This document shows positions 1-64,000 of a stretch of DNA of 64,000 nucleotides, piece by piece. The stretch lies in the IMG/VR virus record IMGVR_UViG_3300045988_177309, positions 32,170 through 96,169 of that record; one strand, given 5' to 3'. Both the position numbers and the translations under genes were made by a program. The stretch comes from a virus. The first letter of the stretch is position 1. Each line of letters starts with the position of its first letter. The notes under the pieces are model-generated. The model searched no databases and was not told the DNA's origin. It saw only the letters and a list, made by a program, of their open reading frames with translations.

Positions 1-1
1 A

Positions 2-427
2 AATATTCAAGGAAAGGGAGGATTAAATCAAATTCCTTGGAATAAAAATAGTAAAAATACTCAGATTTCTATTGGGGAATTAGAAAATGATGGTTTAACA
101 ATTAGTGCAAAAAGAACTCTTGAGTTATTGCATTAGTTAGATTGTGAAAATATTCCAAAAAAAGATATATGGGTGAAAAATACTAGTCGAGATTATAATT
201 TAATTGCAGATTATGGATTGGCCACTAAGCTTTTTAAAGTATTGCATTTAGATAATAACTAGTATGTATTAACACCGCAAGGTTTTACTCCTTTCAGTAC
301 TAGGATAGAAACTATGATGAAAGCTAAAAACTCTCGGATAGCATTTAAAGGGCTTATTAATATTGGTGCAAATGAAAATGACGCTATGGGAAAATTAAGG
401 GCTATTTATATGCCTAATTATAAGTAA
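2..427 (+). CDS. virion structural protein, C-terminal part (putative major tail/tube protein); 5' end lies outside the window
   Basis: Frame 2 is open from nt 2 to TAA at 425-427 if the in-frame TAG codons at 134-136 and 260-262 are read as sense. It sits directly upstream of the chaperone-like gene and the tape-measure gene. Confidence 0.45.
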
Positions 428-430
428 AAA

Positions 431-459
431 TTGACGAAAAAATTTTTTTATGCTATAAT
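431..459 (+). promoter_or_regulatory. sigma-70-type promoter: TTGACG, 17-nt spacer, TGcTATAAT (extended -10)
   Basis: TTGACG is at 431-436 and TATAAT at 454-459, separated by 17 nt, with a TG at -15/-14. An AAAGGAG ribosome-binding site and the ATG at 492 follow. Confidence 0.6.
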
Positions 460-491
460 ATTTATATATAGAGTAAAAGGAGAAATATATA

Positions 492-1025
492 ATGGCAAAG
501 GTGTCTTTTACAAAACTTGGTTTAAATAAAAATCAAGATATAAAAACTTTTGATTATAATAATGAGACTATTGAAGTAAAGCAATATCTTCCAATAGCTG
601 ATAAGCTTGATCTTATTGCTACTGTAATTAATAATTCCCATGATGCGCAAAAGGAATTTTCTAATGCAGTAAAAATAGAAGTATATCTTGCACTTGAAAT
701 AGTTCGTAACTATACTAATATAACTTTTACAGAAAAACAATTAGAAAATCCTTCAAAGATTTACGATTTGCTTATTGGTTCTGGCTTTATGAGTAAGCTT
801 ATGGATTATTTGCCAACTAACGAATATTCTATACTTCTTGCAGAAATTAGTAAAATGGTTGATTCAATTTATACTTATCAAAATTCTGCGGTTGGTATTA
901 TGGATACAATTTCTCAAGATTATAGTCAATTAAATCTCGATGCTAATGAAATTCAAAAGAAGCTTGCAGATCCTAACAATCTGGAACTTTTGAGACAGAT
1001 AGCGCCTTTACTTGGTCTAAAATAA
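492..1025 (+). CDS. small acidic protein between tail-tube and tape-measure genes (tail assembly chaperone-like by position)
   Basis: Intact 177-aa ORF with no TAG, an AAAGGAG ribosome-binding site 8 nt upstream, and a TAA stop. The assignment rests on synteny only. Confidence 0.5.
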   Translation: MAKVSFTKLGLNKNQDIKTFDYNNETIEVKQYLPIADKLDLIATVINNSHDAQKEFSNAVKIEVYLALEIVRNYTNITFTEKQLENPSKIYDLLIGSGFMSKLMDYLPTNEYSILLAEISKMVDSIYTYQNSAVGIMDTISQDYSQLNLDANEIQKKLADPNNLELLRQIAPLLGLK

Positions 1026-1067
1026 TTTATTGAGTTGTCCTAATTTTTAATAAAATTAGGATATTAA

Positions 1068-1106
1068 AAGCCTTATGGTATTTAATATACCATAAGGCTT
1101 TTTTGT
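1068..1106 (+). terminator. rho-independent terminator (or attenuator) between the chaperone-like gene and the tape-measure gene
   Basis: Stem aagccttatggta / taccataaggctt with a 6-nt loop, followed by TTTTTT. A second T-less hairpin lies at 1039-1060. Confidence 0.6.
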
Positions 1107-1135
1107 ATATAGAGAGAAAGGAGCAAATTTATTAT

Positions 1136-4100
1136 ATGGCAAAACAATTAAATGTATCTTTGTCTTTTACTGCGGATGCTAATGCGGCAAAACGTGAGAT
1201 ACAATCATTGCAGTAGGCTTTAAATAATTTAGCTAAATTTGGTACTACAGATTTGCCAATAGGTAATGAAGTTTCAAAATTAAATGAAGATTTGCGCGAA
1301 GGTATGCATGCTGCGGCTGATTTACAAGCAAAACTTGAAAGCGCAGTTAATGTTAAGACCGGCAAATTGGATTTAAATAAATTTAATAGTTCTTTAAGAT
1401 AGGGTAAGACAAGTTTGCAAGATTATGCAACTTCATTGTCAAAGCTAGGCCCGCAAGGAGTAGAAGCATTCAACCAAGTGGCAAACGCTATAGTTCATGC
1501 AGAAGCTCCTATTCTTCGAGTAAATAGTAAAATAAAAGAACTCGGTGTTTCATTGGCAAATACCGCAAGATGGTAGTTATCATCCAGCATTGTTCATGGT
1601 TTAATAGGCGGGATGTAGAAGGCTTATTATTATGCGCAGAGTTTGAATAGATCTTTAAATGATATTCGTATTGTTACTGGTTATAGCGCTGATTAGATGA
1701 AAACTTTTGCACTTGAGGCTAATAATGCGGCAAAAGCTTTAAGTACAACTACGACTAATTATACTAATGCTTCTTTGATTTATTATCAATAGGGCTTAAG
1801 TGATGAAGAAGTTAAAAGGCGTACTGACGTTACTGTAAAAATGGCCAATGTTACTGGTGAAACTTCTGAAAAAATTTCCAATTAGATGACTGCAGTATGG
1901 AATAACTTTGCACAAGGATCAAATAATCTTGAATATTTTGCAGATGTATTGGTTAAGTTAGGTGCATACACCGCTTCCAGCACTGATGAAATGACTACAG
2001 GTTTAGAGAAATTCTCATCAGTCGCTCAGACTATTGGATTAAGTTATGAATATGCATCTAGTGCTTTAGCAACTATTACAGCTACTACTCGTGAAAGTGC
2101 TGATGTGGCTGGTACTGCATTGCGCACATTATTTTCCCGTATTCAAGGTTTGACTCTTGGAGAAACCCAAGATGATGGCACTAATTTAAATAAATATTCT
2201 GAAGCTTTAAGTAAAGTTGGTATAAATATTAAAGACACTTCCGGCGAATTGAAAGATATGGATACTATCTTGAATGAGCTGGGTAATAAATGGACTACTT
2301 TACGCCGAGATCAACAAATGGCTTTGGCGCAAACTGTTGCTGGTGTGCGTCAATATAATCAGTTAATTACTTTAATGAGTAATTGGGATTATTTTTAGGA
2401 ATTAGTTGGTGTTGCAAAAAATTCAACTGGTGAATTAGATAATCAAGCTAAGATTTTTGAAGAAAGTTGGCTTGGTGCCTCTAAGAGAGTGCGAGCTGCC
2501 GCGGAAGAAATTTACAATCAATTATTAAAAGACAATGCTTTTATTGCTTTAACTGACACTTTTTCAGATATGATTGGTTTAATTGCTGATGTTATTAATG
2601 GCTTGGGTGGATTAAAAGGTGTCTTATTTACTGTTGGTGGAATTGCAACTAAAGTGTTTTAGAAAGAAATTGCAAGTGGTTTAAGAAACACTGTTAATAG
2701 TATTAGGCAATTAACTCCAAAAGGACGTAAAGAATTTGAAGAAAGTAAATTGGCCGCTGTTAATATTGCTAAAGAAACGGCGAGAAAATATGAAGGTTCT
2801 GATAATTTAAAAATTTCCGCTTCATCTAAAGCGCTAATGCAGGAATTAAATATCCAAGAAACATTGGTAAAATATCAGGATCAATTAAATGATGAACAAT
2901 TGAAACAAGTACAAATTCGTTTGGATGGCTTACGTGGATTGCAAAATTAGGTTAAATCGATGGCTGATTTAGCTGAAAAAGCTAAAGAAGTAACTAAAGA
3001 AAGCGAAAAGGCCGCTAGACTTGAATTATAGAAAGAATATCAAAATAAAGAAAAAAAAGTTATTTTAACTGAAGCACGAAAATAGTATATTACTGAATAG
3101 AAAAGTACAAAAACTAAAAAAGGCAAAAAAGAGGCTATAAGAGTTGAAAATCTTGGATATGGTGAATTAGAAGATGATGTAAAATTTGATCAATGGTTTT
3201 AGGCAAAAAAAGATGTTATTAAGGAAAATGTTAAGAATAAGTTAAATCAGTTAAATTAGGAATTATAGTCTGAATTTCAAAATTTGAAATTTGATTCACA
3301 TTTAGGGGTTTAGTCGGGTCGTTTACAAGTTTTTGATAATTAGTGGACAAAAATTACTGAAGATATTAATAATCGACCTGAAGAAGAAGAAATAACTCAA
3401 GCAGATATTGACAGAGTTAAAGCTTATGGTAATGAATTAGATCAAATTATTAAAAGTTATGAAGATTTACCAGAAGAAGAATTAAAGCGCTTTTACGAGC
3501 TATTTGATGAAGCAGATAAAAATCCTTTAGAAAATTTAAAAGACATTAAAAATAGCATTTTAGAAGTTGTTAATGCGGCTGATGATTTACAAGGGGAAAA
3601 GATTGAAAAACTTAAAGAGATATTAGGATTAAGTAGTTCTAGCGCTCCTCTTGATGTAGCTGGTAATGTAAAATAGATAGTAGACTCTTCTAAAAATGGT
3701 GTTACTGATACAGAAGCTTATCAAGCTGCAGTGGAAGAAGGAAAAGCGACGCAAAATTATCGGCAAGGTCAAATAAATACTGCGCTTGAGGAAGTAGCTG
3801 CTTTAAAGATGATTAAAGAGGCTCGTGAAAATAATCTGAAGAATTGGTCTTAGAGAGTTACTGAGGTTAGCCAAGTGGTAATGGATTTAGGATCTATAGT
3901 TTCAAGCGTATAGGGAGTTATTAATGTTTTTAATAATCCTGATGCTACAGCTTGGGAAAAAGTGGTATCAGTTATCTCATTGTTGAGTGCTACTTTAGGT
4001 TCTGCGGTTAGGATATTTGATACTGCGAGTAAGTCAACTCTTCTTTTCAAATTGGCTGCAAAAAGTGCTGGCATATCTTTAAAAGAAATGGCAGAAGATA

Positions 4101-7100
4101 CAGAAAAAGCTGCGGCAGTTTAGAGTTTACTTAATGCAAAGATTATGATTGCTCTTGCAGCTATAGCTGCAGTGGTAGCAATCGCACTTATTCTTGCTAA
4201 TGCTTATAATGCTGATGCTAAAGCGGCCGAAAGAGCAGCAAAAGCATCTCAAGAAATGGCTGATTCTTCTGAAGAAGTTGCCAATCGCGCTAAAGAAGTC
4301 TAGGAAGCTTTTGATGGTTATAAGGAAGTCCGTAAAACTTTAGATGAATGTGTCAAAGGTACAGACGAATGGAATGAAGCTTTAAAGAATGTTAATGATA
4401 ATGTTATTGATTTATTAAAAAAATATCCAGAATTAAGTCAATTTTTAATAGGTCGAGATAATGGTGTTTTAACATTAGATGAAGAAAAAGTAGAAAATTA
4501 TATTAAATCTTTAGAAGGGTTTGGTTCTACTTTAAATGCAGCATCTTTAAGCGCGAGTGCTTATGCAAGTAAAGCTCAAGACAATTCTGATGCAGTAAAT
4601 TTAAGTCGTTAGATTTTTGGAGTGAAAGTTGATAATTTTCTTCAAAATATTGAAGAATTTGCTGAACCATTAACTAAAGATGAGTTTAGATAGAAACTTC
4701 TTGATTTAGGTATTGCAACAGAAAAAACCATAGATAATATTGTAAGTTATCAAGATACTGTTCAAAATTTAGCTCAAGAGACAACAACTACTGCGGCGCA
4801 GATTAAAAATGCAGGCATTATTATTGCTAATTCAAGATTAGGCGAAGAAGCGAGTAATACAGAAGTTGGTATTGCAGGAAAAGCTTATTCTGACATTTAT
4901 AATTAGAAATATGAAGAATATGTAAGCATTTTAAATGATCGCATGAATGTTTTCCAAGGGATAAATTCAACACCAGCTTATGATACTGCATCCTACCAAA
5001 ATAGTGCTATTTATGGAACAGGTATTCGTATCAATGGAGTTCAAGGCAATGCTACCTATGCTGATATTTGGAAAGTTATTCAAGAAGAAACTGGTAAAGG
5101 ACCTCTTATGTCCAATGCTTTACAAAATCATGATGGTGGAATACGATTTGCTTATCAAGGTGATGATGGTGAAATAAAATATGCTACTGCCGAATGGGTA
5201 GCAAGTGTTTTAGCAGCTAGAGAGGCTTTAAAAAATATGGAGGGCGCAGCAGCTGAAGCTGCAGCAACTTTAGAAGAAGTATCTCCTAGTAGCCTTAAGT
5301 TTGCAAATGCTATGGCCACGGCCTATCAAGAAGATGGCACCTTTAAATTTGGTAATTATACTGCAAATCTTACTCAAGCTGATTTAGCTACTCTTGCAAG
5401 CGGAGAATCAGAATCATTTTATAACATATTAGGCACTAATGCAACAGATTTTGAAAAACTCGCGGAGACTTATGGAGTTTCTGTTCAAGAATTAATTGAC
5501 TTTTTAGTTAAAAACGCAGGAACAACTAGTGATAGCGTAGCAGCGGCAAAAGAAAAATTGGATGAAGCCACTAATGTTGAAGGTCTTTCTGCATCAGAAA
5601 TACAAAGACTTGCTAATGCAAAAGAAAATGTAAAAGAAAAATCCAAAGAAGCCTTTAATGAAGTTGGCGCTCTAGAAATTGGGCAGATTGAAGAAGAAAA
5701 TGCAGATAATGCTGAAGGTCTATTGGGATTTTTTGAAGGTTTAAATAATATAGATCTTCAAAGTGAAAATGCTGAATAGCAATTAGCAGATTTAGCCGAA
5801 CAATATAATATTACTGGTAAAGGCCTTGAACTTTATATCAAATAGGTTAAAGATTTAGATAAATCTTACAATGTCTCCACAACCAATATAGCAACTCAAG
5901 CACAAGAGCTTCAAAAGATCATTGGTAATGGCTTAGACCTTGGCGATGTTATTACTCCTGAATCATTTAATACTTTAAAGCAAGCTGGAATTAATGTTGA
6001 AGAATATTTCTCTAAAAATGCTTCTGGAACTTATACTTTAACAAAACTTGCTAATGAATTTAATGAAGCTGTTAATAATATTACTTTAGATGCATTACGA
6101 CAATAGCAATAGGACTATGGCATTGCTCTTAAAGAAGTTCTTGACAATGCACATAATGAATATGGTTTTGGTAATAGCCAATTAACTCAATGGATTTTAA
6201 ATACCGATTCTACAATTGATAATAATGTAGAAAATTAGGACGTAGTTGGCAATAATGCCTAGAATTTAGGCCGTGCAAGATTAGACTATTTAAGTAGTTT
6301 TGATGCTGAAGCTTATAAAGATTTTGGATTTGAAGATATGGAAGGAGCTATGCAGCTTCTTGAAGATTATACTAAGAATCCAGAGCTTGAATTAACTAAA
6401 GAACAATTCCAGATGATAGCTGAGATGATTGGCTTAACTAATGATAAATTAGTTGAAACTTCTGGAATGATTGCTTCAATAACCAATTCTTAGGCCGAAT
6501 TAAATAGTTTATATAAACAAGGTTTAATTTCTATTGATGAATATAATCAAAATTTAGAACGCATTTAGGTTGCAAATCTGGATAAAGATGTTGACGAAAA
6601 GGCATTTTCTTCATTAAAAGATACATTAAATGAACTTTCTGGTGAATTTGGCGAATTATCTGAAAATGTTAAAGACAATGAAACTGCGTTAGGAAACATC
6701 TCAGAAGCTGTTTTACGTTTTGATGATGCAATTCAAGATGTTACTGAAAATTATGATGATTGGCTCAATATTTTAAAAACTGGTTCAATTCAAGAGGTTG
6801 CTGAAGTTACTGAAGATTTAGCTGATGCTTATGGCGATTTATTAGACATGGATAATTCGTCTTTCTCTACTGGCTTTTTAAGAGATACTGATAATCTTAA
6901 GTTAATGAAAGAAGCTGCTGAAGGTTCGGCTGAAGCTTATGAAACGCTATAGCAAAAGGCTCGTCAAGACATTGAGGCTCATATAGATTCTACTAATTTA
7001 GAAGAATTTAAATCTCAATTATCTGAAGTTGAATCTGCTATGGATGCAATGCAATTCCAAGATTTAGAAATTGGAGCTAATTTAAACATTGATGGGTTTT

Positions 7101-10100
7101 TACAAAGTTTAAGCGATATGGTTAATGCTGCAGGAATGACTGCGGCAGAAGCAGAATCTTATTTGTCATCTTTGGGCATTGATGCAGAAGTTACAGAAAA
7201 TGACACTCAATAGGAAATGGTCAAAAATGACTTAGTTCCAAAAATTGAATATAATACTCCAGTAACAGGTCCTGCTGCAGGTGATTTTGGTTAGATGACA
7301 ACGGCGAAAGTTCCAACCATTAGATATGAAGCGGTTCCACAAACTTATCAAGATACTTATAGTGCGCCCACTTTAAAAGTTATGAGTGCTACTAAAAGTA
7401 GTGGTGGTAATTTTAAATTTAAGCAAAGTTCTCATGGTGGCGGTACTAAGAATCCTAAAAAGAGTAGTGGCGGTGGTGGAGGTTCTGATAAGAAAGAGCC
7501 TAAGCTTAACAAAAATGAAATTGAGCGTTATCATGAAATAAAGAATACTCTTGAAGATTTAACACGAGAATATGATCGTGTTGCTAAAGCTCGTGATCGA
7601 GCTTATGGTATGACCAAGGTTGCTCTTATTCAAGAGGAGATAGAGAAGACCAAAGAACTTGCGGAAGCCCAAAAGCAATATATGACTGAAATCAATGATA
7701 ACCTCATTGACGATCAAAAAGCTCTTGCGGCCTTGGGCGCAACATTTGATTCTCGTGGTAATGTCAATAATTACGATTCTCTTGTTGCGGGTTGGGTTGC
7801 AGAGTTTAACGCTTCACTTACTGACGAAGCAGAAAAAGCTTATCAAGACAAAGTAGATGCACTTAATCAATACGAAGAAACTCATGATTTATGGCAAGAT
7901 GAATATGATAAACTAATTGATTATTATAATCAAATTGTTGATTTGGAGTTAGAAGCCATAACTGTTGAAGTTGATTTTAAGATTGAATTATCAGAAAAGG
8001 AAATTGAGCGAGTGGAGTATGAAATTGAAAAACTCACTCGAAGTCGCACATTAAATATTGATATACAGATTAATAAAATGGGCGACTATATTCCTGAGTA
8101 TATGAAACAATCTAAGGAATATCAAGATGCTATTCAAAAAATCTATGATAGTGCAATGAAATATGGTCTTACTGAATTAACACAAGATCAATGGGACACT
8201 ATTAAAGATTATCAATCTAAGCTTTTAGAGCTTAACCTCAAGATGCTTGATAAAGTGCAAGAGGTTGAAGAGAAATTTAATGAAGTCATTGATAAGATGA
8301 CCGAACGTTTTGATGAAGCTGAAGGTCGATTTGAAACTTATGGTAGTGTACTTGAGCATTTCAGTGATACAATGGAATTGCTCGGTATGAATACTAAAGA
8401 TTTCGTCACTTATCAAAAACTTTTACAGCAAAGAATGGATACTTCAATTGCTACGATTGATAACAATAAAAAACGCCTTGATACTTATAATCAAGCATTA
8501 GCAGAAACTAAGGAAGCTTTAGCTCGTGCGGTGGAGCAAGGTGATCAAGAAAATATTCTGTTCTGGCAAGAAAAGGTCCGTGAGCTTGAAACCGCAAGTG
8601 AAGAAGCCTATGAAGCATTTATTTCCTCTTGGCAGAGTACAATTGAAGCTGCAACAGAATTCTTTGAAAGTAAAGTCGAGGCCATTATACAGCACTTCAA
8701 AGATAATCTTTTTGTTGATGGCTTAGATGCAATGGCTGATAAACTTGATAAAGTTAATGATGTGCGTGAACGTTATCTTGATGATTTTGATCGTTGGTAT
8801 GAAATCAGTAAATTAAATCGTGAGATTGACAAAGAAATTGATGATACCAGTAATCTTTCAGCGAAACGTCGATTAGCTGATTTCCAAAAAGAAATATTAA
8901 AATATCAAGAAGAAGGCGCATTAATGAGCCAGTATGACTTAGACCATGCGCGCGCGCGATATGAATTATTACTTGCGGAAATTGCTTTGGAAGAAGCCCG
9001 TAATGCTAAGAATACGGTCTAGTTGAAGCGAGATTCTGAAGGTAACTGGGGCTATGTTTATACTGCTGACCAAGATAAAATAGCAGAAGCTGAACAAAAT
9101 TATGAAGATAAATTGCATGATATGCAAGAAGCCGCAAAAGATTACCGGAATGAAATGGAATCTCAAGTAATTGATGCTTTAAACAATATGTTTGAAGAGC
9201 TTGGCGGACTTGATAAAAATGCAGCCGATTATCAAGAAAAAGCTTGGAAGATTTATCAATTCTATTATGATAAATTACAATATCTTGCTGTAGAATTTGA
9301 TAAAGCTTTAGCCGATAGTAATTCTACTTTAGCTGATACAGTATTTGCCGATGAAGGCATTATGACTGATTTCTTAACTTATATAACTAACTTAATGAAT
9401 AGTGTTAAAGATGCGCCAGAATAGTTAATTAATCAGTATAAAAATTTACAAGATACTATCCGCAAGGCTAATGAATCTGCGGGAATTGATAGTGATAATT
9501 TCAGTAATAATGTTATTATTAATATTGATTGGGTTAATGGTAAAACTGAAGACCTTGCTAAAGATATGGATTCTTTTATGGGAGATATTTCTGATAGTAT
9601 CACTAAAGTAATTAATACTATTTAGACCTGGAAAGAAACTTATCTGAGTGCAATCAGAGATATGATGGCCGCGAATGAAAAATGGAATCTTAGTTCTTAT
9701 GAAGTACCTGCTGGATATAGTAGTTGGGAAGATTATTTTAAGGATCATCCGCCTGAAATTGATTGGAACTGGACACCTAGCTACACCGGCGAAGCTGGCG
9801 GTGAATATCGCGGATATATGGTTGGTAATGCGAGTAATAGTGGAACTAGTGGTGGCAGTGGAAGTAATACAAATACACCAAAAACACCGTATACTCCAAG
9901 AACTCCTCCGCTTGATGATGCTATAGAGTTGCCTGAGCATGATACTTCAGATGCTGATGATGTTATTGAAAAATTTTATAATCATGGAAAAGAATCTTAG
10001 TATGCGAAAGAATAGGCGCTTATTGCTGCAGCAAAGATGGCTGGTAGACGTTATTAGGGACAAGTGACTAGAGAATTAAAGAAAAAGCAGTCTAAAAAAA

Positions 10101-10477
10101 ATAAATTAACAGTTCCAAATCATTAGTGGGATGTGTTTGATACAGGCGGCTATACTGGTGATTGGGGAACTTCTGATGGTAAAGTCGCTCTTCTCCATGA
10201 GAAAGAGTTAGTCTTAAATAAAAAAGACACTGCCAACATTCTTGATTCTGTAAATATAGTACGCGATATGAATAATCAAATTAATCGCAATATTCGCTAT
10301 GCATCTTTTGCGCAACAAGTCGCGGCGTAGATTAAGGAACAACTGCAAAATGAATTAAAGCAAAATGTTGAAATTCAAGCCACGTTCCCAAGCGTAACCA
10401 ATAGTAATGAAATTGAAGACGCTTTCAATAATTTGGTTAATGCGGCGGCGCAATATGTAAATAGTAAAATTCAATAA
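1136..10477 (+). CDS. tail tape-measure protein, ~3113 aa, translated with TAG as a sense codon
   Basis: Frame 2 is continuous from the ATG at 1136 (ribosome-binding site AAAGGAG) to TAA at 10475-10477. It is interrupted only by dozens of TAG codons, with no TAA or TGA in 9.3 kb of AT-rich DNA. All ORF-track pieces (1886, 2750, 4943, 7295, 9023, 9662, 10133) share this frame. Composition is typical of tape-measure proteins: alpha-helical, Ala/Lys/Glu-rich, with stretches such as MANVTGETSEKISN-Q-MTAVWNNF. Confidence 0.85.
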
Positions 10478-10520: not shown

Positions 10521-10599
10521 TTTGGACTAATATGATTAAATAATTTATGAAAATTTTTATAATAAAATAGGATTTAAGAGAGAAAGGAGTGAATATAAT

Positions 10600-47827: not shown

Positions 47828-47844
47828 GAAAGGAGACAAAGATC

Positions 47845-52004: not shown

Positions 52005-52005
52005 A

Positions 52006-52260
52006 TTAATTTATTTTAACCTCTAAATTATTATAGTTATATTCTGTTTTTGCTAAATCTATTAAACCTTCAGCAAATGTTTCACAATAAGGCTCCGCGC
52101 CAATAAGATGAACTTTATTGTCATTATATTTATCAACTGCGTACATAATTGCAGCCATACAATCGTCTGTTGAAGAAGTCGCAATGGGGTCTTGCTTATT
52201 TCCATCAACATGAAGAATATGATGATTATAAGTAAATAAATCCATAGTACAAACTATCAT
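52006..52260 (-). CDS. hypothetical protein (84 aa)
   Basis: Intact ORF with ribosome-binding site GGAGGTTTAAAATAAT. Confidence 0.45.
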   Translation of the reverse strand: MIVCTMDLFTYNHHILHVDGNKQDPIATSSTDDCMAAIMYAVDKYNDNKVHLIGAEPYCETFAEGLIDLAKTEYNYNNLEVKIN

Positions 52261-52261
52261 A

Positions 52262-52795: not shown

Positions 52796-52803
52796 ATTAA
52801 ATT

Positions 52804-53325: not shown

Positions 53326-53356
53326 TTATACTTTATTTCCTCCACAAGATTACATT

Positions 53357-54304
53357 TCATTCTAAATTACCAGCGTGTTTTACGCGTGCTTCAACTTCAG
53401 CTTGCTTGCCTTTATTAAAGGCTGACTTGTAGTCGCCAGTAAGATAGCCTGTCACACGTCGAAGTTGCTGTATATTATGACTATGGCATTCGGGGCATTC
53501 ATCATTAAATTCATCAGTATATCCACAATCTAAGCAAGTATCATTTGGAACATTAATAGCAAAGTAAGGAATATCTTTATCCATTGCATAATTTACTATT
53601 TGTTCTAATGCATCCAAATTATTTTTTACCGAAGAGTCTAATTCGATATAGGTAATACATCCAGCATTACTATATCCAGTAAGTTGACTTTCAAGATCGA
53701 TTTTATCAAAAACATCAATCTTTTCCCAAACTGGAATGTGTATAGAATTGGTGAAATATTCATGATCACTAACCTTGGGAATAACTCCATATTTTATTTT
53801 AAACTTTTTCATGGCTGTATAACATAAATTTTCAGCAGGAGAAAAATATACACCAAAATTAAGTTTATATTTTTCTTTAAATTCAGCGCAACGAGTTTTA
53901 AAAAGTTGTTCTATACGTTTAGCCAATTCCATTCCCTTTGGATTGGTATGATTGCAACCAATTAATAATTCTAAAGTCTCCGCGAGACCAAGTTGACCTA
54001 TAACGAGCGTACCATGCTTTAATGCACTCCTTATGCCTTCTTCCGGCTTATATCCTGCCATTAGCCCATTTTCATACATAAATTTGGCACTATCAGGACT
54101 TTGTGAACAAATCCATTCAAAACGTTCAAGAAGCATATCTTTTGCTTCATGAATTTTAGTATCCAAAAGAGCCATAAACTCTCCAACATTTCTACCTGCT
54201 TCCATAGCCAAAGTGGGCAATATAATTGTAACAGGGCAAATATTTCCACGGCCATCTTTTTGCTGACCAAGGCCATTGATATCCATGCCATTAGATGTTC
54301 TACA
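53357..54304 (-). CDS. nrdD: anaerobic ribonucleoside-triphosphate reductase, exon 3 (C-terminal part with Zn ribbon and glycyl-radical motif)
   Basis: Contains ...CRTSNGMDINGLGQ...GNICPVTIILP...CLDCGY...CPECHS...RRVTGYLTGDY... The exon start was placed at the Cys codon that completes the conserved MGCR-like junction. Confidence 0.8.
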   Translation of the reverse strand, partial: CRTSNGMDINGLGQQKDGRGNICPVTIILPTLAMEAGRNVGEFMALLDTKIHEAKDMLLERFEWICSQSPDSAKFMYENGLMAGYKPEEGIRSALKHGTLVIGQLGLAETLELLIGCNHTNPKGMELAKRIEQLFKTRCAEFKEKYKLNFGVYFSPAENLCYTAMKKFKIKYGVIPKVSDHEYFTNSIHIPVWEKIDVFDKIDLESQLTGYSNAGCITYIELDSSVKNNLDALEQIVNYAMDKDIPYFAINVPNDTCLDCGYTDEFNDECPECHSHNIQQLRRVTGYLTGDYKSAFNKGKQAEVEARVKHAGNLE

Positions 54305-54817
54305 CGTATAATTCCAATATCCCTATTGGTACTGACTATATCTTCAATTCTTTTTTGAATTGTCTTCCGCTTCGAGCGAGTGCTTATCTCTCACCCTACT
54401 CCCTTACATTCATCAGGGATAGTCGATACAGATTTTTAAATATTATAAATGAAATTCTACTTCTCCATAATCACCAGTACAATATCGAACAATATTCTCT
54501 TCAGGAATTGTATATTCTTTAATTGTGCAATTTTCATTTACGCCAAGCTCTTTAGAAAAATATTTTTCTAAATATTCAAGAGAAATGCAGCCATACAAAG
54601 TATTAGGAGGATTTTTGATAGAGCACTCAGGGTCAAATCTACAAATGCCTTGTAGAGTAAACCAAGGTCCCCCGCCATCTTCTTTTTCATATCTGTAAAC
54701 TTTTATCATAATATTTAAACTTTCCACGGTCTCATCTGTTCTAGACCTAACCGTTAGCAGCATTATCAATGCCACACCTGCGAGCGCAGTTCAAAAGATT
54801 TTAAATGAGCTGAGTTT
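54305..54817 (-). mobile_element. group I intron 2 in nrdD (~513 nt)
   Basis: It separates the exon ending ...TYFSTMG from the exon starting CRTSNG... Its 3' core carries CGACTATCC...GGAGTAGGG, elements shared with intron 1. Confidence 0.6.
54443..54775 (-). CDS. intron-borne ORF of unknown function (110 aa, GTG start)
   Basis: Lies inside nrdD intron 2 and has no recognisable nuclease motif. Confidence 0.3.
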   Translation of the reverse strand: MALIMLLTVRSRTDETVESLNIMIKVYRYEKEDGGGPWFTLQGICRFDPECSIKNPPNTLYGCISLEYLEKYFSKELGVNENCTIKEYTIPEENIVRYCTGDYGEVEFHL

Positions 54818-55078
54818 TCACTTACCCATTGTTGAAAAATATGTCCGTGGATCTAAGCGGTCATATCCTTCATTACCGCTCCAATCTACATTAGCATAAT
54901 TAGGATAAAGTCTTGTTGAAGTAGACTTTAATGCTAATTTAAATAAATCATAATTAGGATCACCAGGTTCACGATTTACTCCTCGCATACATTGGAAAAT
55001 GCCGCAAGGAAAAATTGAAGTTCTATGATGTTTACCAGTACCTTCAATAGATACTTCAAGCATTGCTTTTGTAATCAT
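54818..55078 (-). CDS. nrdD: anaerobic ribonucleoside-triphosphate reductase, exon 2
   Basis: Contains ...GKHHRTSIFPCGIFQCMRGVN...LYPNYAN...TYFSTMG. The true 5' exon boundary is probably slightly inside this ORF. Confidence 0.7.
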   Translation of the reverse strand: MITKAMLEVSIEGTGKHHRTSIFPCGIFQCMRGVNREPGDPNYDLFKLALKSTSTRLYPNYANVDWSGNEGYDRLDPRTYFSTMGK

Positions 55079-56164
55079 ACGCCCTTCTGGAAGAGTGCAA
55101 GTGCCGTAGTTAACGCTCGTAAAAGGTAATTGGTTTCCACTTCGACTTTGTAAAGTATTCCTTTAATATTCAACTGAGTTCGTTAATCTCAGCCCGATAA
55201 AATAAGTCGATGATTTTATCTGCTATATGTCGCCATATAGAATAGACTATATCTTCATCCTCTATCGAGGAGCCTATCATTTCGATTTAAGGGGTTCTCA
55301 CCCACCACTTGGCCCTACTCCTGTAGACGAATTTCACGTCCTATATGGATAGTCGTTAGGCATTTAATAATATGTGTGTTTGTTCTTCTGTTGCGTATTG
55401 GAAATGATATCCACCAGTTGTTTCCAATCTTTGTCCTTTACAAACTTTAGAAATATTTGTAGCATAAAGATTTAGTTGTCTAGCACATTCTTGTATTGAC
55501 TCATAAACAGTATCTAATTCAACACAATATACCGGTTTTTTATCTTTTTTAGCAGCAATAATATGTTGGCGTTTTTCTTCCGAACAAGAGCCTGTTGATT
55601 TTCCTCTTTTTGCTTCAGAAATGTGTTGTTTATGTTCTTCGGTAAATTTTTTTCCTTTTAAAGCTAATCGAATTTTTTCTTTAGTCTCTTCTGAGCATGG
55701 ATGTGCGCCATTGGTATTATTTTTCATATTATTGGAAAGTTTTTGTCTTGCTTCTTCTGACATAATCGTCATTTCTCCGCCAGTTGTTAAATTATATCCA
55801 TTTGGAGACAAAGAATTAAACTTTTTAATGTAATATTGCTCTTTTTCACAAGCCTCATCTTTAGTAAGGTTAGTTTCTAATATCTTGTGTTCAAAGTTAT
55901 CCCAACCATATTTTTGAATAGCTGCATAAAATTTTGGACTCGTTGAATATTTTTGACCATTTAATCCCCAGCGTTCTTCTGGTTTTCTTTTCGTTATTCC
56001 AATATATTGTTTTCCATTTATTTTATTTATATGCTGATAAACTAAATAACATTCTTCCATATAAGCTACCTCCTTTCCTTAAAAAATTCACATATTATAT
56101 TTAGCACGGGATTGTCTACTTGAAATTTTCCCCGTTTAGATAGGTTAGGTTCTTAATATTACTA
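55079..56164 (-). mobile_element. group I intron 1 in nrdD (~1.1 kb) carrying a GIY-YIG homing endonuclease gene
   Basis: Exon 1 runs into the TAA at 56165-56167. The intron contains an ORF with its own ribosome-binding site. Its 3' core carries CGACTATCC...GGAGTAGGG, matching intron 2. Confidence 0.7.
55356..56060 (-). CDS. GIY-YIG homing endonuclease (I-TevI-like), intron-encoded; contains no TAG
   Basis: Starts VYQHINKINGKQYIGITKRKPEERW and contains NGYNLTTGG. Ribosome-binding site AAGGAAAGGAGG. Confidence 0.8.
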   Translation of the reverse strand: MEECYLVYQHINKINGKQYIGITKRKPEERWGLNGQKYSTSPKFYAAIQKYGWDNFEHKILETNLTKDEACEKEQYYIKKFNSLSPNGYNLTTGGEMTIMSEEARQKLSNNMKNNTNGAHPCSEETKEKIRLALKGKKFTEEHKQHISEAKRGKSTGSCSEEKRQHIIAAKKDKKPVYCVELDTVYESIQECARQLNLYATNISKVCKGQRLETTGGYHFQYATEEQTHILLNA

Positions 56165-57136
56165 TTAAGCCGCCCAAATACTTAGGTTATGGTAAAGACC
56201 TTCGACCGCTTGGTGAACTTCACGAACAGTCATATCCATAGCATATTTATAAGCTTTATCAAAATCTCCAGAATCATCTACTTTATTTGGATAAGCTGAA
56301 TAATCATTAATTGGAATATCTATAATTTTTTTATAGATATCACTATCCTCTAAATAATTATCTAAATTCCAATTACAATTACATAAATACTTCATACCAT
56401 CACGATAATGCTTATAAAAAGATTTACGCACATAAGGAACCATAGTCCAATCAAGATGGGTCGCACTTACGCCACCAAATTGCTGAAGACTCTAAAGCTG
56501 AAAAATTACTGCGACAAGTTGCATTGCAGTATTTACAGAACCTGCAGGGCGCACATCTGCTTGCCGAGTTGTAAATCCATTTGCGAGAAGATCATCGAAT
56601 GGAACGCTTAAGCAATTATGGCTACCAACAAAGTATGCATCTAGATCATGAATGTAAATTTCATTATTTAAATGATTATTTTTTGCCATTGAAGATACTA
56701 TATAATCAAGAGCTAGTGTACGTGTTACTAAACTTGCAGCTTCACCAGTACGACCGCCGAAAGAACGTTCATCAACATTGGCATTTTGATTTTGAACATC
56801 ATCGGCTTGAAGCTTTTCTTTAATAGCTTCAATAAACTCATTTTTATATTTTCTTGCGGTTTCTTGCTTATATCTAAAACGTATATAGGCTCTTGCAACA
56901 TCAGGTCGCTCAGAACGCATCAAATATTCTTCGACCCAATCTTGTATATTTTCTACAGAAATATTTTTTTCTTTGGATAACTTTTGAGCCTTTTTTTCTA
57001 TGTCATTTGCAATATCAATAGCAGTATCAAGTTCATAAACCTGGCCATCAACTTCTAAAAAAGCTTTTAAGATAGCTGCAACAATTTTAGTCTTATCAAA
57101 AGGAACTTGAGTGCCATCTCTTTTTATTATATACAT
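56165..57136 (-). CDS. nrdD: anaerobic ribonucleoside-triphosphate reductase, exon 1 (ATP-cone plus N-terminal catalytic region; 1 in-frame TAG)
   Basis: ATG at ~57136 with ribosome-binding site AAGGAG gives MYIIKRDGTQVPFDK (ATP-cone). ORFs 56492..57223 and 56165..56443 are in one frame, joined by the TAG at 56492-56494, reading ...AVIFQL-Q-SLQQFGG... Confidence 0.8.
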
Positions 57137-57219
57137 AAAATTGTATTTCTCCTTTACTTTAATATAAAAGTTTCTACTATATTTAGAGTTTTTTATATAA
57201 TTATAAACAAAATCTGCCC

Positions 57220-57810
57220 TCAATTTTCTTTTGTGCCAAATTCAGAAATTTTTTGTTTCATTATTGAAAGAGCTTTTTTATAGTCTTCAGTAGTATCATT
57301 TTTAAGCACTACACACTGTTCTAAAAATTCATCTTCAAAAGAAGCAAAATCTAATCTATCACTTTGATAACGTCGCACAATTTCATTAACGTCGGGGTCA
57401 ATTTCTCGATTTAGTTGCCGTAACAAACGAATTTTATCAGTGCTAGTTTTAATATAAAAAATCAATAAATCAACATTAGGATGAGAAAGAATTGCACGAA
57501 TTGCATCAGGGTCAAATACTCCAATATTAATATTAGTTACACGTAAACTATCATAACTAGTGCCGTAACACCAATTATTAAAAACAGTTGCTTCAATAAA
57601 TTCATCATTTAAAAGCTTTTCCGCAAATAGTTCAGGTATAATAAAATAATAATTTAATCCATCTACTTCCTTATCCCTCTTGGGTCGAGTGGTTGTTCTT
57701 ATAATTTCATGATAAGAAGGATTATTTTCTATAAATTTATGAAGCAGAAAGTCTTTTCCACTTCCTGCTTCACCACAAAGAGCAACAATTTTATACTTAG
57801 GCAGTTTCAC
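57220..57810 (-). CDS. gmk: guanylate kinase-like nucleoside monophosphate kinase (196 aa)
   Basis: Contains GEAGSGKDF (P-loop) and IRTTTRPKRDKEVDGLNYYFI (guanylate-kinase signature). No TAG. Confidence 0.7.
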   Translation of the reverse strand: MKLPKYKIVALCGEAGSGKDFLLHKFIENNPSYHEIIRTTTRPKRDKEVDGLNYYFIIPELFAEKLLNDEFIEATVFNNWCYGTSYDSLRVTNINIGVFDPDAIRAILSHPNVDLLIFYIKTSTDKIRLLRQLNREIDPDVNEIVRRYQSDRLDFASFEDEFLEQCVVLKNDTTEDYKKALSIMKQKISEFGTKEN

Positions 57811-60800
57811 TACTATACCTCTCGCTTATCAAATTAATTTCTCCTTTATCATTAATTGAATCAATTTTATAAAGAGTATGGCCAGGAGTTGAATTATATT
57901 TTTTAACCAAAAAAATATCATCAATCCTCACTCCAGTAACAACAATCATGCTGCCGCGATTAAACCAACCTTTTTCCTTTACATGTTTACAACCATCAGC
58001 TCCACGTTCGGAAATTTGTTTGTCAAATAACGCAAAAAATTCTTTACGAAATTTTAGTTCAACAACGCCAGAAGTAGTTAACAGTGTAACGGTACTTTTT
58101 GTTTTATTCTTTGCAATACAAGTACCACAAATACGTGATAATTTGAATAAAGGAATTTCACGGCCATTACGCTTAAAAGTCTTATCTACTATTGGAGTGG
58201 TAGGTAATTTTGCAAAATCACTAATTCCATATTTAGTGATGGGTAAATGCGCTAATTCATGTTCATGATAATAGAAACATAAAACTTCCATTTCCCAAGC
58301 AGAAATTGTACCTTGAGCATAATTTTTCCAATCTTCTACAAAAATAATTTTATTAAGGGAATTTAAAACTTCATTCTGGTTTTTAGTAATATAATCTCTA
58401 ACTACATTCATTTCGGATTGATAAAATTTATCCCAGAGTAAAGTATTTATAATAAATTGTCCGCAATATTCAACTGCATTAAAAGAAATAACACCTATAT
58501 CATGCAGCTCATTAATAAAATTAATTGCTCTATCATCTAAAATATAAAATTCAACTTGTTTATTAACAATTCGCAATGTTATTTTTTTACAGACTTTTTT
58601 CAAATATCTTGTAAATTCATAAACTCGGCTTGCTAAAACTATTGAATCGTCTTTTGGAAGTATATCATATTTAATAAGACTGGCCATATTTTGCAAAGTA
58701 ATACGGTTTTTCTTATCACAGGTTTGCCATATGTACCAAGCCATTGCAAACTTCCTATTTTCCATTGAATCAAAAGCACCGCTTTTAATTAATGAAACCA
58801 TCGCGCGACGGCCAATTTTTACCTTTGCAAGAAAATCTTTTATTGAAACGTAGGGGCGATTATTAATTATATCTTGTACTATATCATCACCAACATTTAG
58901 AATACCTTTAAGACCGAAAAGAATTTGATTATTTTCAATGTCTGGCGCAAATCCAAAAGCTGAACGATTAATGTCTGCAAGACTTACTTTAATTCCCGCA
59001 CTTTGGATATCACCAATTGCGCGGGCTATTTTCCCATAATCGGTGGCAGCTCTGCGACGCTTTTTCTTACCACTGCGGTCAGGCAAATCTTCATATTCAT
59101 ATTCTGAAAAATCTTCAGGCTCATATATATTTACAATTTCTTCTTCTTCTGGAAGTTGTTCCAAGCTGCCACTATTAACTATTAAACATGCAGTATCCCA
59201 ATAAATAGGGTTAAAATTAATAGCGAGATAAATCATTTGTATACCAACAAATGAATAGGGGAGCGAATGATTCAGTGAGAACGCATAACCTAGGGACGGC
59301 GCCACCACGACCTCCCACACGTATTCGGCAACCCTAACATCATCAAATCGTGAAAAGAGTTGCTCTTTAAGTGCGGGGATTTTATCCATTTGTTTTTTGG
59401 CGACAACCTTCCTAGCAGCATTAGACTCAGCCAATGAAAATCCAGCAACGTCCATCAAAATTTCCATCATTTGTTCCTGCAAGGCGCAGCAACCATAATA
59501 TCTATCACAATGTTTGTGGAGTTTTTGAATTATATCTTCAGGAAGATTGTGTTGTCGCATTTCATCATCAAAAGCTTTAATGCCAGCTTTTTGAATACGA
59601 CAATATCTATCTTGCTGACTTTCCTGGCCCTTTTCACTCATTAACCTCATTAATGCGTTTGCGGCAGTCATCTCAATAGGATCTTGAGGTTTAAGCTTTT
59701 TCGCAACTGCCAAACCCACTCCGGTGGAAAACTGAAATACATCAAGCACATCTCCTGCACTCAGATGATCCCAGATGCGCTGATCTTTTGTATTAAGCAC
59801 TTCTGGATGTAAATATTGGTTATAAAAATCTCTTAATCCCATTTGTGGAATTTCATTATACTTACTCAGAAGATTGTAGCACTGGATAATTTTATCACAG
59901 GCTTCAGTTACAAGGAAGTCATACTTGACATCACCGGCGCTTTCAGCCCGATGGAGATCATAACATGTAATCAATTCGCCACTAGGCGCGCGCATTACAC
60001 TTGCAGTTTCAAAAATATGATTTTTATCATAAAGAATAACGCCAGAAGCATGAATGGTTCTTTTATTTACTACACCTTCTATATTAAGCATAATATCTAA
60101 AAGACCTGGGTATTGTTCTACCTCATGAATAAAAGGCTTTACCGGAGCTCTATCCTCTTCAGGATTGCCATAAATAACATCTTTTAGGGGCCATAAAAAT
60201 CCTCGATGTTGAGGTATAAGCGAACTCATATACTGAGCTGTGTCAACATCAATGCCTTCAGGAAAATCTTCAGTACGATAACCACGGCATGCGGTCAGAA
60301 TTGCAGACTTCGTGCCCTCTGTACCGAAGGCTGCAACTTGAACCAAACCGTATTCTCCACGCTCCTTACGAATCGCTTCGAAGATAGCCGGTCGGCGCGA
60401 GGGGGCTAGATCTATATCGATGTCTGGAAGTTCAACGCGCTCGAGGTTCAGGAACCGCCAATACTATAAACCCCATCTTACGGGTTCAAGTTGAGTAATA
60501 CCCAATAAATAATTCGACAAAAAGCCCGTAGCGCTACCTCGGCCAGGGCCAACAATTGATCCACATTCCCAAAATAAATCAATATAATGCTTAAAAGTGT
60601 TAAAATATGCAAAAAGACAATCATGCAATTTATTTCCAATAGTCAAAATTACGTTGGCCTCTGTTTCAAGCCTTTCATAATAAATCTTATCAGTTAATTT
60701 TTTTTCATGCATCGCCATAACGCACTCATTTACCCAAGCTCTTTCTTGCAGGTTTTCACTCATAAAGAGCTGATGCAAAATAGGATATTCTTCACATTGA

Positions 60801-61760
60801 TTTTTTTGAGGATAAAATACAACCTCTACTTTTGGAATGCTTTGAGTTTTTTCTAATGAGTAATCTTGAATTTTATCTTTAATTTTTAAAGTATTTTGAA
60901 AAATCCAATTAATTATTTCATCATTATTAAATGATTTATTTAATAACTCTCGACATTCTTTTTCATCCATTAAATAGGTAAATTCATAAAATAAATCAAC
61001 TTCTCTATCGCCATCTTTTGAATTAAGATAAGCTTTATGAATAGGACGATCTGTGCGAGTCAAGTAATGTGAGTCTGTGGCCACAACCATAGGAATATGA
61101 TAATTTTGTGCAATTTTAAACAATTTTTGATTTACTGTTATTTGATCTTGTTGAGTAGAAGGAGCGCATTCAATATAAAAATCATCACCAAAAATATCTT
61201 TGCAATATTGAATAAAAGTACATATATCTTGATAAGCAAGAGTTGCAGTTTCTATATCATCTTTTTTTTGGGCATTTACCATTGCCAAAGCTTTAGTTGA
61301 TAATTCACCACCAATACAAGCTGTAGTTGCAATTATATGGCCTTTATACTTTTGCATAATGTTTTTAAGTTCACTTTTTAATAAAGGAACTCTATCCATA
61401 TTGCGATCATTATACATGCCATACCAAGCTGCTGAACTAAGTTCATGTAAACCTTGATGTCCATATAAATCTTTTGCAATTAGTATAAAATGATAGTATT
61501 TTTGTCCAGACTTTCTTTCATCAACTAAATATATCTCATTTCCCAATGCAATTTTAAAATTAGGATATTTTTCATGGATTTTTTTTGCATATTGATTTAC
61601 TTCCATATGAGCACTTAAACATTCATGATCTGTAATTGCTATTCCCTCAAGACCCAATTCAATTGCTTTATCAATAAGTTTCTTTGGGTCATTTATACAG
61701 TCAAAGCAAGCGAATATTAGAGTACCAAGTATGATTATGACAATTAAAATATGAACTCAC
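57797..61760 (-). CDS. dnaE: DNA polymerase III alpha subunit (~1300 aa); needs a +1 frameshift at CTT TGA C (~61700-61706) and reads one in-frame TAG (60464-60466)
   Basis: GTG at ~61760 with ribosome-binding site AAAGGAGGG gives MSSYFNCHNHTWYSNIRLL in frame X. This ends at CTT TGA, and the +1 frame continues DCINDPKKLIDKAIELGLEGIAITDHE... (PHP domain). TAG joins ...EPVRWGL-Q-YWRFLNLERVELPDIDIDL..., the conserved DnaE motif. Downstream are the HhH and OB regions. Confidence 0.75.
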
Positions 61761-61792
61761 TATTCTCCCTCCTTTCATTTCTTTCTATATAT

Positions 61793-61821
61793 ATTATACT
61801 ATATAACATTTTATATATCAA
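61793..61821 (-). promoter_or_regulatory. sigma-70-type promoter for dnaE: TTGATA, 17-nt spacer, TATAAT
   Basis: The minus-strand sequence is TTGATAtataaaatgttatatagTATAAT, ~30 nt upstream of the dnaE ribosome-binding site. Confidence 0.55.
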
Positions 61822-61829
61822 CATATATA

Positions 61830-62633
61830 TTATCTCTAATAATATTGTTCTTCATTTTCAGGAGTTAACAAAAACCTTGTTGTTTCAAGTTTTAAATCAT
61901 TTAAATTATATTCTATATTATAAGGAATTCGAATCAAAGGAATATGATGTTCAAAACAATATTTATTTTTTAATAAATCATTTTGATGAGTTTTTTCAAA
62001 GCGCTCTTTAGTATGCCATCCAATATCATTATAAGAAAAATGCTATAAACCATCATATTCAATTAAATATAATAAAATATCTGTATTATAAACAGCAATA
62101 TCAAACATTAATTCATCACAAGTTCGACCAGTAGATGTTAAACCTTTAAACTTTTGCTATGTTACATATTTAATTCCTAAATCTTCTAACATTTTTTGAA
62201 TACGAACTTCATGATAACTTGTTAAACATCCACAACTTTTAGTGTCGCCATTTCTTAAATAGTCTCCACGAACAATAACATTTTTTTTACCACAATTTAA
62301 ACAAGTGCAATTCCAATAAACGCTTTGGGTATCTTTTCGAGGTTTCTCCTCTTCAGTAGCCATACGATTTACAAGCAAAAAACCGTAAGTTTTTTCTTCT
62401 TCGTGTTTAATGCTTGCCTAACGTATTTTTTCCATACGAATACATCCACAGTTAGTAGAATGACCGCTTCTTAAATGGCTCCCATCTACAACTTTTATTG
62501 TTCCACAAGCTGTACATTTGCATTTCCAGCGAGCTCTTCCATAAGAATTATTTTCTGCTCGTTCTAATACATGCCAATAGCCAAAATCTTTATTTGTTAA
62601 ATCTATTAATCGGCTCATCTTTTTTACCTCCAA
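61830..62633 (-). CDS. free-standing homing-endonuclease-like protein: tandem Zn-ribbon motifs plus a C-terminal Vsr/DUF559-like nuclease domain (~267 aa; 3 in-frame TAG)
   Basis: ORFs 62418..62633 and 62157..62378 and the downstream stretch are in one frame, joined by TAG. It has two copies of YW.C.C..CG...........G.T.SCGC, then ...CDELMFDIAVY...ILLYLIEYDGLQHF. Confidence 0.5.
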
Positions 62634-62694
62634 GTTTATTCTCCTATTTATTATAAACTTTGTGAGAAGTAACTTATATGCTTATGTCTAGAAA

Positions 62695-63897
62695 TTACCA
62701 TCGTTTAACCCATACTAATTTTTTGGAGGCTCGAGTAATTGCCGTATATATAGCTTTAAGATGTGTTTCTTTATCGAAAGGATGGCCTTCTTCAAGAGCT
62801 AACACTTTATCCCATTGGCTTCCTTGTGCTTTCCAATAAGTAATTGCATAAGCATAAGCAAAATCATAGGGGGGGCCATAGGGGAATCTCTTGCTTTTCT
62901 TCATCATCATTAATTGTCTGTCAGTTAAAGTACGTTGTCCAGTTTTTAGATAAGGATAATCTATCGGAATGCTCTTAAATATAGAGCCATCTTCGGCATT
63001 CATATTAGTATACATATATAAATAAGGAAAGGAACTAACATATTGTGGCAACCAAATTGACCTTTTTCTAAAAGAAGTAATAGTACCAATAGTTCCATTA
63101 GTTAATGGCATATCTCTACCATCTCTGGAGCAAAATTCCCAACGATTATGTAAGCCGATAATTTTATCTCCAATTTCAGGCTCTACTCCAAAACCTCGAT
63201 ATTCTCTAAATAGAGCATTTATTTCTGTACGTTTCTCATTTGTTGCACATAATACTTGATCGGCCCATAAATAAACATCTTTATACAAGTCTTTAGGAGA
63301 TAAAATCATGACTTCTTTATTATCAGCCTGATAACTTGAAACACTTTTACCCTCTCGGACATGCATTGAAAAGCGAATGATTTCACTTTCTTGCGCCTGC
63401 CGCATTATTTCATCAAGAAAGACGTGAGGATGATCTAAAATATGATTATCGTCATTTTTTGAAATCGGCGGAAGTTGAAATGGGTCTCCAAGAGCTAAGA
63501 CATACACATGATGACTTAGTAACTGCTCCCACATTCCAATAGGTAACATTGAAACTTCATCAACTACAATTACTTTAAAATCATTATCTAATTCATCTTT
63601 TGGAATAAAGATATAACTTCCATCAGGCTGCTGACAGGCTTGATATAAAAGCTTATGTGCAGTAATGGCATTAGGACAACCTTTTTGGGCAAGCACGGTT
63701 GCAGCTTTACCAGTAAATGCAACATAGGCTACATCTTCATGAGGATCAACCCCAAGCGCTGCAATAATAAAGGTTACAAGCGTAGATTTACCACTTCCAG
63801 TTAAGCGTAGCCAGCGATACAAGTGTAAGGCTCATTACTCTTATATCGGGCTACGGCGATCTTCAATCCTTCCTCTTGTTTTTTTGTTAATATCATT
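62695..63897 (-). CDS. dda: Dda/RecD-like SF1 DNA helicase; its N-terminal 31 codons lie in a different frame (5-nt disruption at ~63803-63807)
   Basis: The 375-aa ORF carries TGSGKST, VVDEVSML, GDPFQLPPI, KAQGSQWD and YTAITRA. Upstream, ATG...MILTKKQEEGLKIAVARYKSNEPYTCIAGYA matches the Dda N-terminus up to the P-loop and then hits TAA; the main ORF lies in the -1 frame. Confidence 0.65.
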
Positions 63898-64000
63898 TAT
63901 ATTAAATCCTTTAAATCAGTTTTAAAAATCTCATCATTTAAAATTATATCTTCATTTGATATTGGATTTTTTACTCCAAAAATTTCCAAGGGGTCTTTTT

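Follow-up and report, generated by a model that had tools for sequence, protein, structure and literature searches.

Gene layout and reading frames of the window

The stretch of DNA analysed here (64,000 nucleotides, hereafter the window) is part of the IMG/VR virus record IMGVR_UViG_3300045988_177309, positions 32,170 to 96,169. It is a 100% match to contig ZEEV15-1_SAMEA3664668 scaffold_29 (162,542 bp; ENA ERZ28661244) from a human gut metagenome and makes up 39% of a phage genome of ~162.5 kb. The genes are arranged in two blocks, with the late virion genes on the plus strand (2-50125) followed by the early/replication module on the minus strand (50144-63831). The subject of this report is the codon TAG, which, as judged from the reading frames and from alignments with relatives, is a sense codon in this phage, with glutamine (Gln) as by far the best-fitting residue (genetic code 15).

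The GC content of the window is 32.7%. When TAG is read as sense instead of stop, the summed length of stop-to-stop open reading frames (ORFs) of at least 100 amino acids increases from 15,592 to 24,228 amino acids, and the longest ORF from 888 to 3147 amino acids. Recoding of TGA or TAA was ruled out, since freeing either of these codons leaves the longest ORF at 888 and 897 amino acids, respectively. If only TAA and TGA are treated as stops, 61,995 of the 64,000 nucleotides fall within 44 non-overlapping ORFs, which contain 194 in-frame TAGs; 38 of these ORFs end with TAA and six with TGA. A first-pass annotation, made from the letters alone, had likewise put all gene ends at TAA or TGA. The open frames have homologues, and within them TAG is in frame while TAA and TGA terminate, as in code 15. 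Read with the standard code, the window would lose about 40% of its coding capacity and its virion genes would resemble debris, while with code 15 it has the look of a normal SPbeta-like phage; the practical worth of the assignment is in annotation.

Among the late genes, all on the plus strand, the tape-measure gene (1034..10477) has 3147 codons stop-to-stop, with 45 TAGs and no TAA or TGA in frame until the terminal TAA, and the ~9.3 kb open stretch described for it in the first pass is therefore real. The gene calls of the source record also read across TAG, giving a 3113-aa tape measure with the Pfam family PhageMin_Tail and a DnaE of 1269 aa. Four giant virion/tail protein genes follow at 10540..14703 (1387 codons, 18 in-frame TAGs), 15051..18392 (1113 codons, 13 TAGs), 18374..23227 (1617 codons, 23 TAGs and one CAG) and 23618..28000 (1460 codons, 18 TAGs), and in the third of these the TAG share significantly exceeds the late-gene average. 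The final sense codon of the gene at 15051..18392 is itself a TAG, followed directly by TAA (18387-18392), and the gene at 23618..28000 includes a tandem TAG-TAG (26438-26443); both arrangements had been noticed earlier and both are in frame. Over the last three codons of the genes TAG is found three times against 1.2 expected (p = 0.13), and in the absence of significant enrichment the idea that these are relics of former TAG stops is unsupported. The remaining late genes are a TAG-free virion gene (28858..30864; 668 codons with 8 CAA, 9 CAG and 0 TAG), a giant tail/fibre-like protein gene with weak CotH and BspA-type leucine-rich repeat domains (30931..38535; 2534 codons, 20 TAGs) and a block of 16 smaller genes (38826..50125), mostly with 1-6 in-frame TAGs each. 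Pfam searches with TAG-free segments of the genes for the giant tail proteins yielded almost nothing, and a tblastn search with the 668-aa protein gave no match in GenBank phages.

In the replication module the frames can be compared with those of solved homologues. The gene of the DnaE-type, YorL-like polymerase (dnaE; 57797..61756, minus strand; 1319 codons) has a single TAG (60464-60466), located in a conserved block reading VRWGL-TAG-YWRFLNLERVELPDIDID, where solved homologues align without a gap. The residue in this column is leucine in solved DnaEs and is variable among relatives, and the position is therefore evidence of frame continuity only. The nrdD gene (53357..57241, minus strand) consists of three exon pieces (57241-56165, 55162-54818 and 54343-53357) with one coding TAG (56492-56494); again there is no gap relative to solved homologues, and closer relatives have Gln at this position. 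The alignments run here thus support the earlier claim that conserved motifs of dnaE and nrdD continue across TAG.

The two insertions that split nrdD (about 55163-56164 and 54344-54817) are group-I-intron-like. Rfam gave no match in the window, and the scores of the insertions against its group I intron model are sub-threshold (30.3 and 22.5 bits). The first insertion encodes a GIY-YIG/NUMOD homing endonuclease (56078-55356), while the second has a 106-aa ORF and shares an exact 33-nt stretch (54393-54425) with T4 nrdD, and both insertions are absent from three relatives (loci L002, L003 and L025). The view that every long gene is a chain of fragments separated exclusively by TAG needs to be modified accordingly: the 668-codon gene contains no TAG, dnaE contains only one, and nrdD is additionally interrupted by the two insertions, which are not TAG breaks.

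A side observation in this module concerns the RecD-like helicase gene (62695-63831, minus strand), where the first 31 codons (ending CIAGYA-TAA) are out of frame with the Walker-A body (LTGSGKST...). The two parts would be joined by a -1 shift at about 63801-63806. The frame break is identical in two independent assemblies, the second of which (162,465 bp) has an identical stretch around helicase, dnaE and nrdD, and the gene is a single ORF in relatives; the break could be a programmed frameshift or the mark of a disabled gene.

The residue at TAG positions

The amino acid at TAG was estimated from several hundred related loci, drawn from IMG/VR and from collections of metagenome-assembled genomes (MAGs), by masking TAG in translation and recording the residues aligned to each TAG. 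Gln was already the best-fitting amino acid with 55 TAG sites. In the larger set of 141 sites, with 2,199 aligned residues and equal weight for every site, it is favoured over glutamate (Glu) by 74, over lysine (Lys) by 85 and over tyrosine by 221 log-likelihood units. At 42 of the 141 sites Gln has the plurality, and it is the top residue at 30 of the 49 well-conserved ones. Several columns are pure Gln (78/78, 71/71, 63/63, 60/60 and 59/59 relatives), also inside the window (22/22, 20/20 and 13/13), and the small late genes at 47438-47827 and 48927-49352 are examples where TAG stands in a column that is nearly all Gln. The closest relative is 88-93% identical in nucleotide sequence, and the TAGs of the window align there to TAG in 29 cases, to CAA in seven, to CAG in one and to other codons in eight. 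The TAG positions of this phage therefore correspond to Gln in homologues, as in code 15.

Two early genes illustrate the same relationship. The gene of a RuvC-like resolvase (50727..51224, minus strand) has five TAGs in 165 codons, and relatives have Gln or TAG at three of these sites. In nrdG, which encodes a radical-SAM activase (52804..53325, minus strand), the TAG (53254-53256) lies within the motif FFT-TAG-GC, and the aligned residue in Escherichia coli PflA is the Gln of FFQGC. This Gln had been described as invariant, which is not correct, because eight of 40 relatives have serine at the position; with 32 of 40, Gln is the predominant residue only.

It could be argued that the in-frame TAGs are true stops, and that the region consists of pseudogenes, assembly errors or separate fragments, or is expressed by rare read-through. 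The late region is indeed fragmented under the standard code. Nevertheless, the frames are broken by TAG alone, 194 times and never by TAA or TGA, relatives retain these TAGs (at 59 of the 141 sites some relative has TAG as well), and the identical sequence recurs in independent assemblies. We have on these grounds rejected pseudogenes and assembly errors, and 45 TAGs in one essential tape-measure gene would be impassable for rare read-through, which leaves this explanation with hardly any probability.

A second possibility is that TAG is sense and is read as Glu or another residue, for instance if a non-discriminating glutamyl-tRNA synthetase (GluRS) charged a suppressor tRNA and no amidation followed. 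Many Bacillota form Gln-tRNA indirectly, through GluRS and GatCAB. Glu ranks second in fit and has the plurality at 15 of the 141 sites, and the tRNA with CUA anticodon found in a relative (see below) is unlike tRNA-Gln. Set against this are the difference of 74 log-likelihood units in favour of Gln (85 relative to Lys), the many TAG columns that are 100% Gln over 40-78 relatives with not one Glu, and the exchange of TAG with CAA and CAG in the closest relative. We consider decoding as Glu or another residue very improbable. Pyrrolysine was rejected, the Lys profile being 85 log-likelihood units below that of Gln. No Pyl-type family appeared in two Pfam scans covering part of the window proteins or in the Pfam tables of the records, although a pyl cluster was not specifically searched for; the label "tRNA-Pyl" given by ARAGORN means a CUA anticodon and nothing more.

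The reading of TAG as Gln is thus preferred, and the first-pass view that the whole region is read in this way was right as to sense and as to Gln. It does not describe the uneven use of the codon along the region, which we consider next.

Uneven use of TAG and its decoding

Two gene sets were compared, the late set comprising the plus strand of the window and its 10-kb flank, and the early set the minus strand and its flank. In the late virion set (40 genes, 19,415 codons) there are 209 TAG, 458 CAA and 102 CAG, and TAG accounts for 27.2% of the Gln-type codons. The corresponding numbers in the early/replication set (50144..63831 plus flank; 27 genes, 7,480 codons) are 19 TAG, 197 CAA and 60 CAG, a TAG share of only 6.9%. 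The enrichment of TAG in late versus early genes (odds ratio 5.0, p = 5e-14) is of the kind that characterizes code-15 phages. It agrees with the published model of an early-to-late code switch (Borges et al., 10.1101/2021.08.26.457843), where early genes in the standard code are expressed first and the recoded late genes open once an early suppressor tRNA has established suppression.

The late genes themselves are not uniform. Giant tail proteins have 13-45 TAGs each, with CAG nearly absent. At the other extreme, the codons of a capsid-like protein are 0 TAG, 1 CAA and 11 CAG, and those of the tail tube 0 TAG, 3 CAA and 5 CAG, while the 668-aa protein has no TAG among 17 Gln-type codons (P = 0.005). 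Taken jointly these three proteins have TAG at 0 of 37 positions, compared with a late-gene TAG share of 0.271 (0.729^37, about 8e-6). The probable high-copy virion proteins (28858-30864 in the window, and 2311-3420 and 7422-8420 of locus L083) use CAG more than CAA, and their GC content at third codon positions is 0.25-0.34 versus ~0.2. This pattern suggests that TAG, as a less efficient codon, is kept out of abundant proteins, and the gene at 28858-30864 is probably a case of TAG avoidance in an abundant protein. A tentative extension is that TAG may serve as a dosage control besides the early/late gate, with abundant virion proteins kept free of TAG and almost all CAG replaced by TAG in low-copy giant tail proteins. 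If this were true, suppression would be deliberately inefficient and would set the stoichiometry of the virion.

As for the decoding machinery, a search for tRNA genes was negative in the window and the 10-kb flanks (84 kb of the 162.5-kb genome), and the GGQ motif of release factors is absent from every fetched locus. The earlier remark that the window lacks a suppressor tRNA or release-factor gene can accordingly be extended to the flanks. The closest relative, IMGVR_UViG_3300045988_175607, has only a tRNA-Asn, nested in a tRNA-Lys, and a tRNA-Met, with no tRNA(CUA) from 7.2k to 142.7k (about 135 kb) outside ~28-36 kb and ~57-93 kb. In ERZ10544639 NODE_48, a second relative, there are tRNA-Gly, tRNA-Ser and a truncated tRNA-Ala. 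In a third, ERZ1035037 NODE-2, which is 83-92% identical to the second, a 75-nt tRNA(CUA) gene (locus L352, 14960-15034) is located behind a small tRNA cluster in the early-gene region. Because this third relative carries a tRNA(CUA), the lineage has a predicted suppressor tRNA.

The tRNA genes of the relatives show some further features. In the closest relative (locus L340, ~19306-19459) the tRNA-Asn(GUU) gene is situated inside the anticodon loop of the tRNA-Lys(UUU) gene; when it is taken out a perfect tRNA-Lys cloverleaf results, and the nesting is absent from two other relatives. The early region of ERZ10544639 NODE_48 (loci L341/L346, ~10700-12800 and 18400-20300) has a cluster encoding several radical-SAM-type proteins of 420, 448 and 487 aa, with single tRNA genes scattered between them.

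On the whole, the data are very probably best explained by a gut SPbeta-like siphophage with code 15, in which TAG is read as Gln, is scarce in early genes and is frequent in late genes except those of abundant virion proteins, with a suppressor tRNA acting as a switch. In such a scheme the early genes, which are compatible with the standard code of the host, would be translated first. An amber-suppressor tRNA(CUA), encoded by the phage and loaded with Gln by enzymes of the host, would then accumulate and open the TAG-containing late genes. Recoding would in this way act as a timing gate for virion production, because early genes can be read with the standard code and late genes await the suppressor tRNA, and possibly also as a dosage gate. 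A suppressor tRNA in this genome, the enzyme charging it and the temporal order are what we infer from these patterns.

Several observations weigh against this scheme. Apart from the negative tRNA searches in the 84 kb of this genome and in the closest relative, the relative that does carry tRNA(CUA) is tied to the window only via a chain of nucleotide identities of 83-93%. Derivation of its tRNA(CUA) from tRNA-Gln is not obvious in the sequence, as a comparison with the neighbouring tRNA-Gln(UUG) gives 42 identical positions in an 85-column alignment. Neither is the partition of TAG clean, with five TAGs in the RuvC-like gene, four in the early gene at 61830-62681 and three in that at 50144-50737.

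This genome may be without a suppressor of its own altogether, and the decoding could then depend on a near-cognate host tRNA-Gln(CUG) after inactivation of release factor 1 (RF1), or on a suppressor supplied by the host or a helper. The lack of a detected tRNA(CUA) in the regions scanned and the near absence of CAG from TAG-rich genes speak for such a possibility, and suppressors were detected in only ~40% of TAG-recoded phage genomes by Borges et al. (10.1101/2021.08.26.457843). Conversely, the tRNA(CUA) of the relative lies in a genome sector beyond the 84 kb scanned here, the tRNA genes run on past the ends of the fetched contigs, and neither an RF-related gene nor a candidate inhibitor was identified. 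Decoding without a phage-encoded tRNA is in our view unlikely, though less so than a residue other than Gln, and a phage suppressor tRNA remains the preferred explanation.

Phage identity, host and comparison with known systems

The protein families of the window and its flanks indicate that the phage is an SPbeta-like siphophage. Families of SPbeta type in Pfam include YonD_N, YonB, YomU_Tube, YomV, YomW, YomO, YorF, YorH and PhageMin_Tail, and together with the YorL-type DnaE they provide both the virion and the replication families of the SPbeta-like group. The best GenBank phage matches of DnaE, all at 38-39% identity, are the gut phage phAss-1, SPbeta-like Enterococcus phages and yorL of the Bacillus phage SPbeta. 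A megablast search of GenBank phages with window positions 50000-64000 as query gave no match. The lineage is widespread, one of its proteins being identical in 41 index blocks of public assemblies, in at least 23 contigs. Of 78 loci of portal relatives, 58 likewise look TAG-recoded by a crude measure, a TAG-type gain in ORF length.

A Firmicutes (Bacillota) host had been proposed on the basis of strong Shine-Dalgarno sites and sigma-70 promoters. The former are real: AGGAG or GGAGG is found at -18 to -4 of 19 of the 38 first in-frame ATGs, versus ~1% of random windows and 0-16% of frame-shifted or internal controls. The promoter argument has to be abandoned, since sigma-70-like matches in the window are at chance level (97 versus 100 +/- 10 in shuffles). 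Nor do terminator-like and promoter-like matches in the window as a whole exceed the shuffled expectation. Two individual structures are likely terminators, a perfect 19-bp hairpin (47254-47295) that has T-runs on both strands and is located 3' of the gene at 46834-47244, and a hairpin (50112-50138) where the convergent late and early modules meet. Capsid homologues are mostly found in Bacillota MAG bins, in contigs that are whole phage genomes. Assignment of the host from such bins alone was rejected: whole phage contigs end up in bins, and several bins (Methanobrevibacter, Treponema) are clearly spurious as a result. Taken together with the Shine-Dalgarno sites, the SPbeta families and the DnaE matches, the bins are indirect evidence that a Bacillota host is plausible and likely.

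Gut phages with code 15 have been published before, including an SPbeta-like group with a tape measure of ~3150 aa (10.1101/2021.08.26.457843; PMC10607447; PMC9523058). At the protein level, by metaproteomics, the reassignment of TAG to Gln has been proven only in crAss-like phages (Peters et al. 2022, PMC9523058). The crAss-like and Lak phages with code 15 share this reassignment with the present phage, but are unrelated lineages which infect Bacteroidota, and differ from it with respect to its strong Shine-Dalgarno sites and SPbeta-type proteins. In gene content the phage resembles SPbeta and SPbeta-like Enterococcus phages: YonD, YonB, YomU/V/W, YomO, YorF, YorH and the YorL-type DnaE are shared, the tape measure is likewise very long and the genome exceeds 125 kb. 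The DnaE is only 38-39% identical to theirs. The Enterococcus phage EF1 showed no stop-codon recoding in a published study (PMC10607447).

The human gut phage phAss-1 of the proposed genus Phassvirus (Babkin et al. 2023, PMC10607447; GenBank OQ749652), filed at NCBI under "Caudoviricetes code 15 clade", is the nearest phage so far described. Its tape measure is 3149 aa long, it has three tRNA-Sup(CUA) genes, and its predicted host belongs to the Clostridia (PMC10607447). Both phages come from the human gut, use TAG for Gln mainly in virion genes and have a tape measure of ~3150 aa, a YorL-type DnaE, nrdD/nrdG, a dUTPase and a predicted Clostridia/Bacillota host. On the other hand, the DnaEs are only 39% identical, there is no match at the nucleotide level (window 50000-64000), the genomes differ in size (162.5 kb here, 136 kb in phAss-1) and the replication modules differ in gene order. 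Of the 36 tRNA genes of phAss-1 three are tRNA(CUA), of which two lie immediately upstream of nrdD, whereas the window and flanks have none. Members of Phassvirus share 80-86% nucleotide identity and synteny, and the present phage falls outside that genus.

One type of tRNA(CUA) gene, 85-95 nt long and with a long variable arm, is common to phAss-1 (locus L245, 12445-12532) and 23 IMG/VR contigs, often adjoining a tRNA(CUA) of normal length; loci with such genes include L014, L042, L057 and L247-L269. The 23 contigs were matched with a pattern derived from the phAss-1 gene, and none belongs to the lineage described here.

The clades of Borges et al., especially the Firmicutes-associated Agate clade, resemble the phage in their low GC content, in recoding of TAG (or TGA) that is found mainly in genes for structure and lysis, and in variable or little recoding of replication genes. 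The genome size (154 +/- 27 kb) and host phylum of Agate are compatible with the size and the likely host of the phage described here. Recoding is itself well documented in gut phages; this genome is a clear but ordinary example of it and leaves the knowledge of recoding unchanged. What it adds to the Firmicutes-associated code-15 phages is a well-resolved lineage that is widespread in the human gut, together with a detail beyond those described for the Borges et al. clades: its most abundant virion proteins avoid TAG and prefer CAG, so that TAG-free abundant and TAG-rich low-copy proteins stand in unusually sharp contrast.

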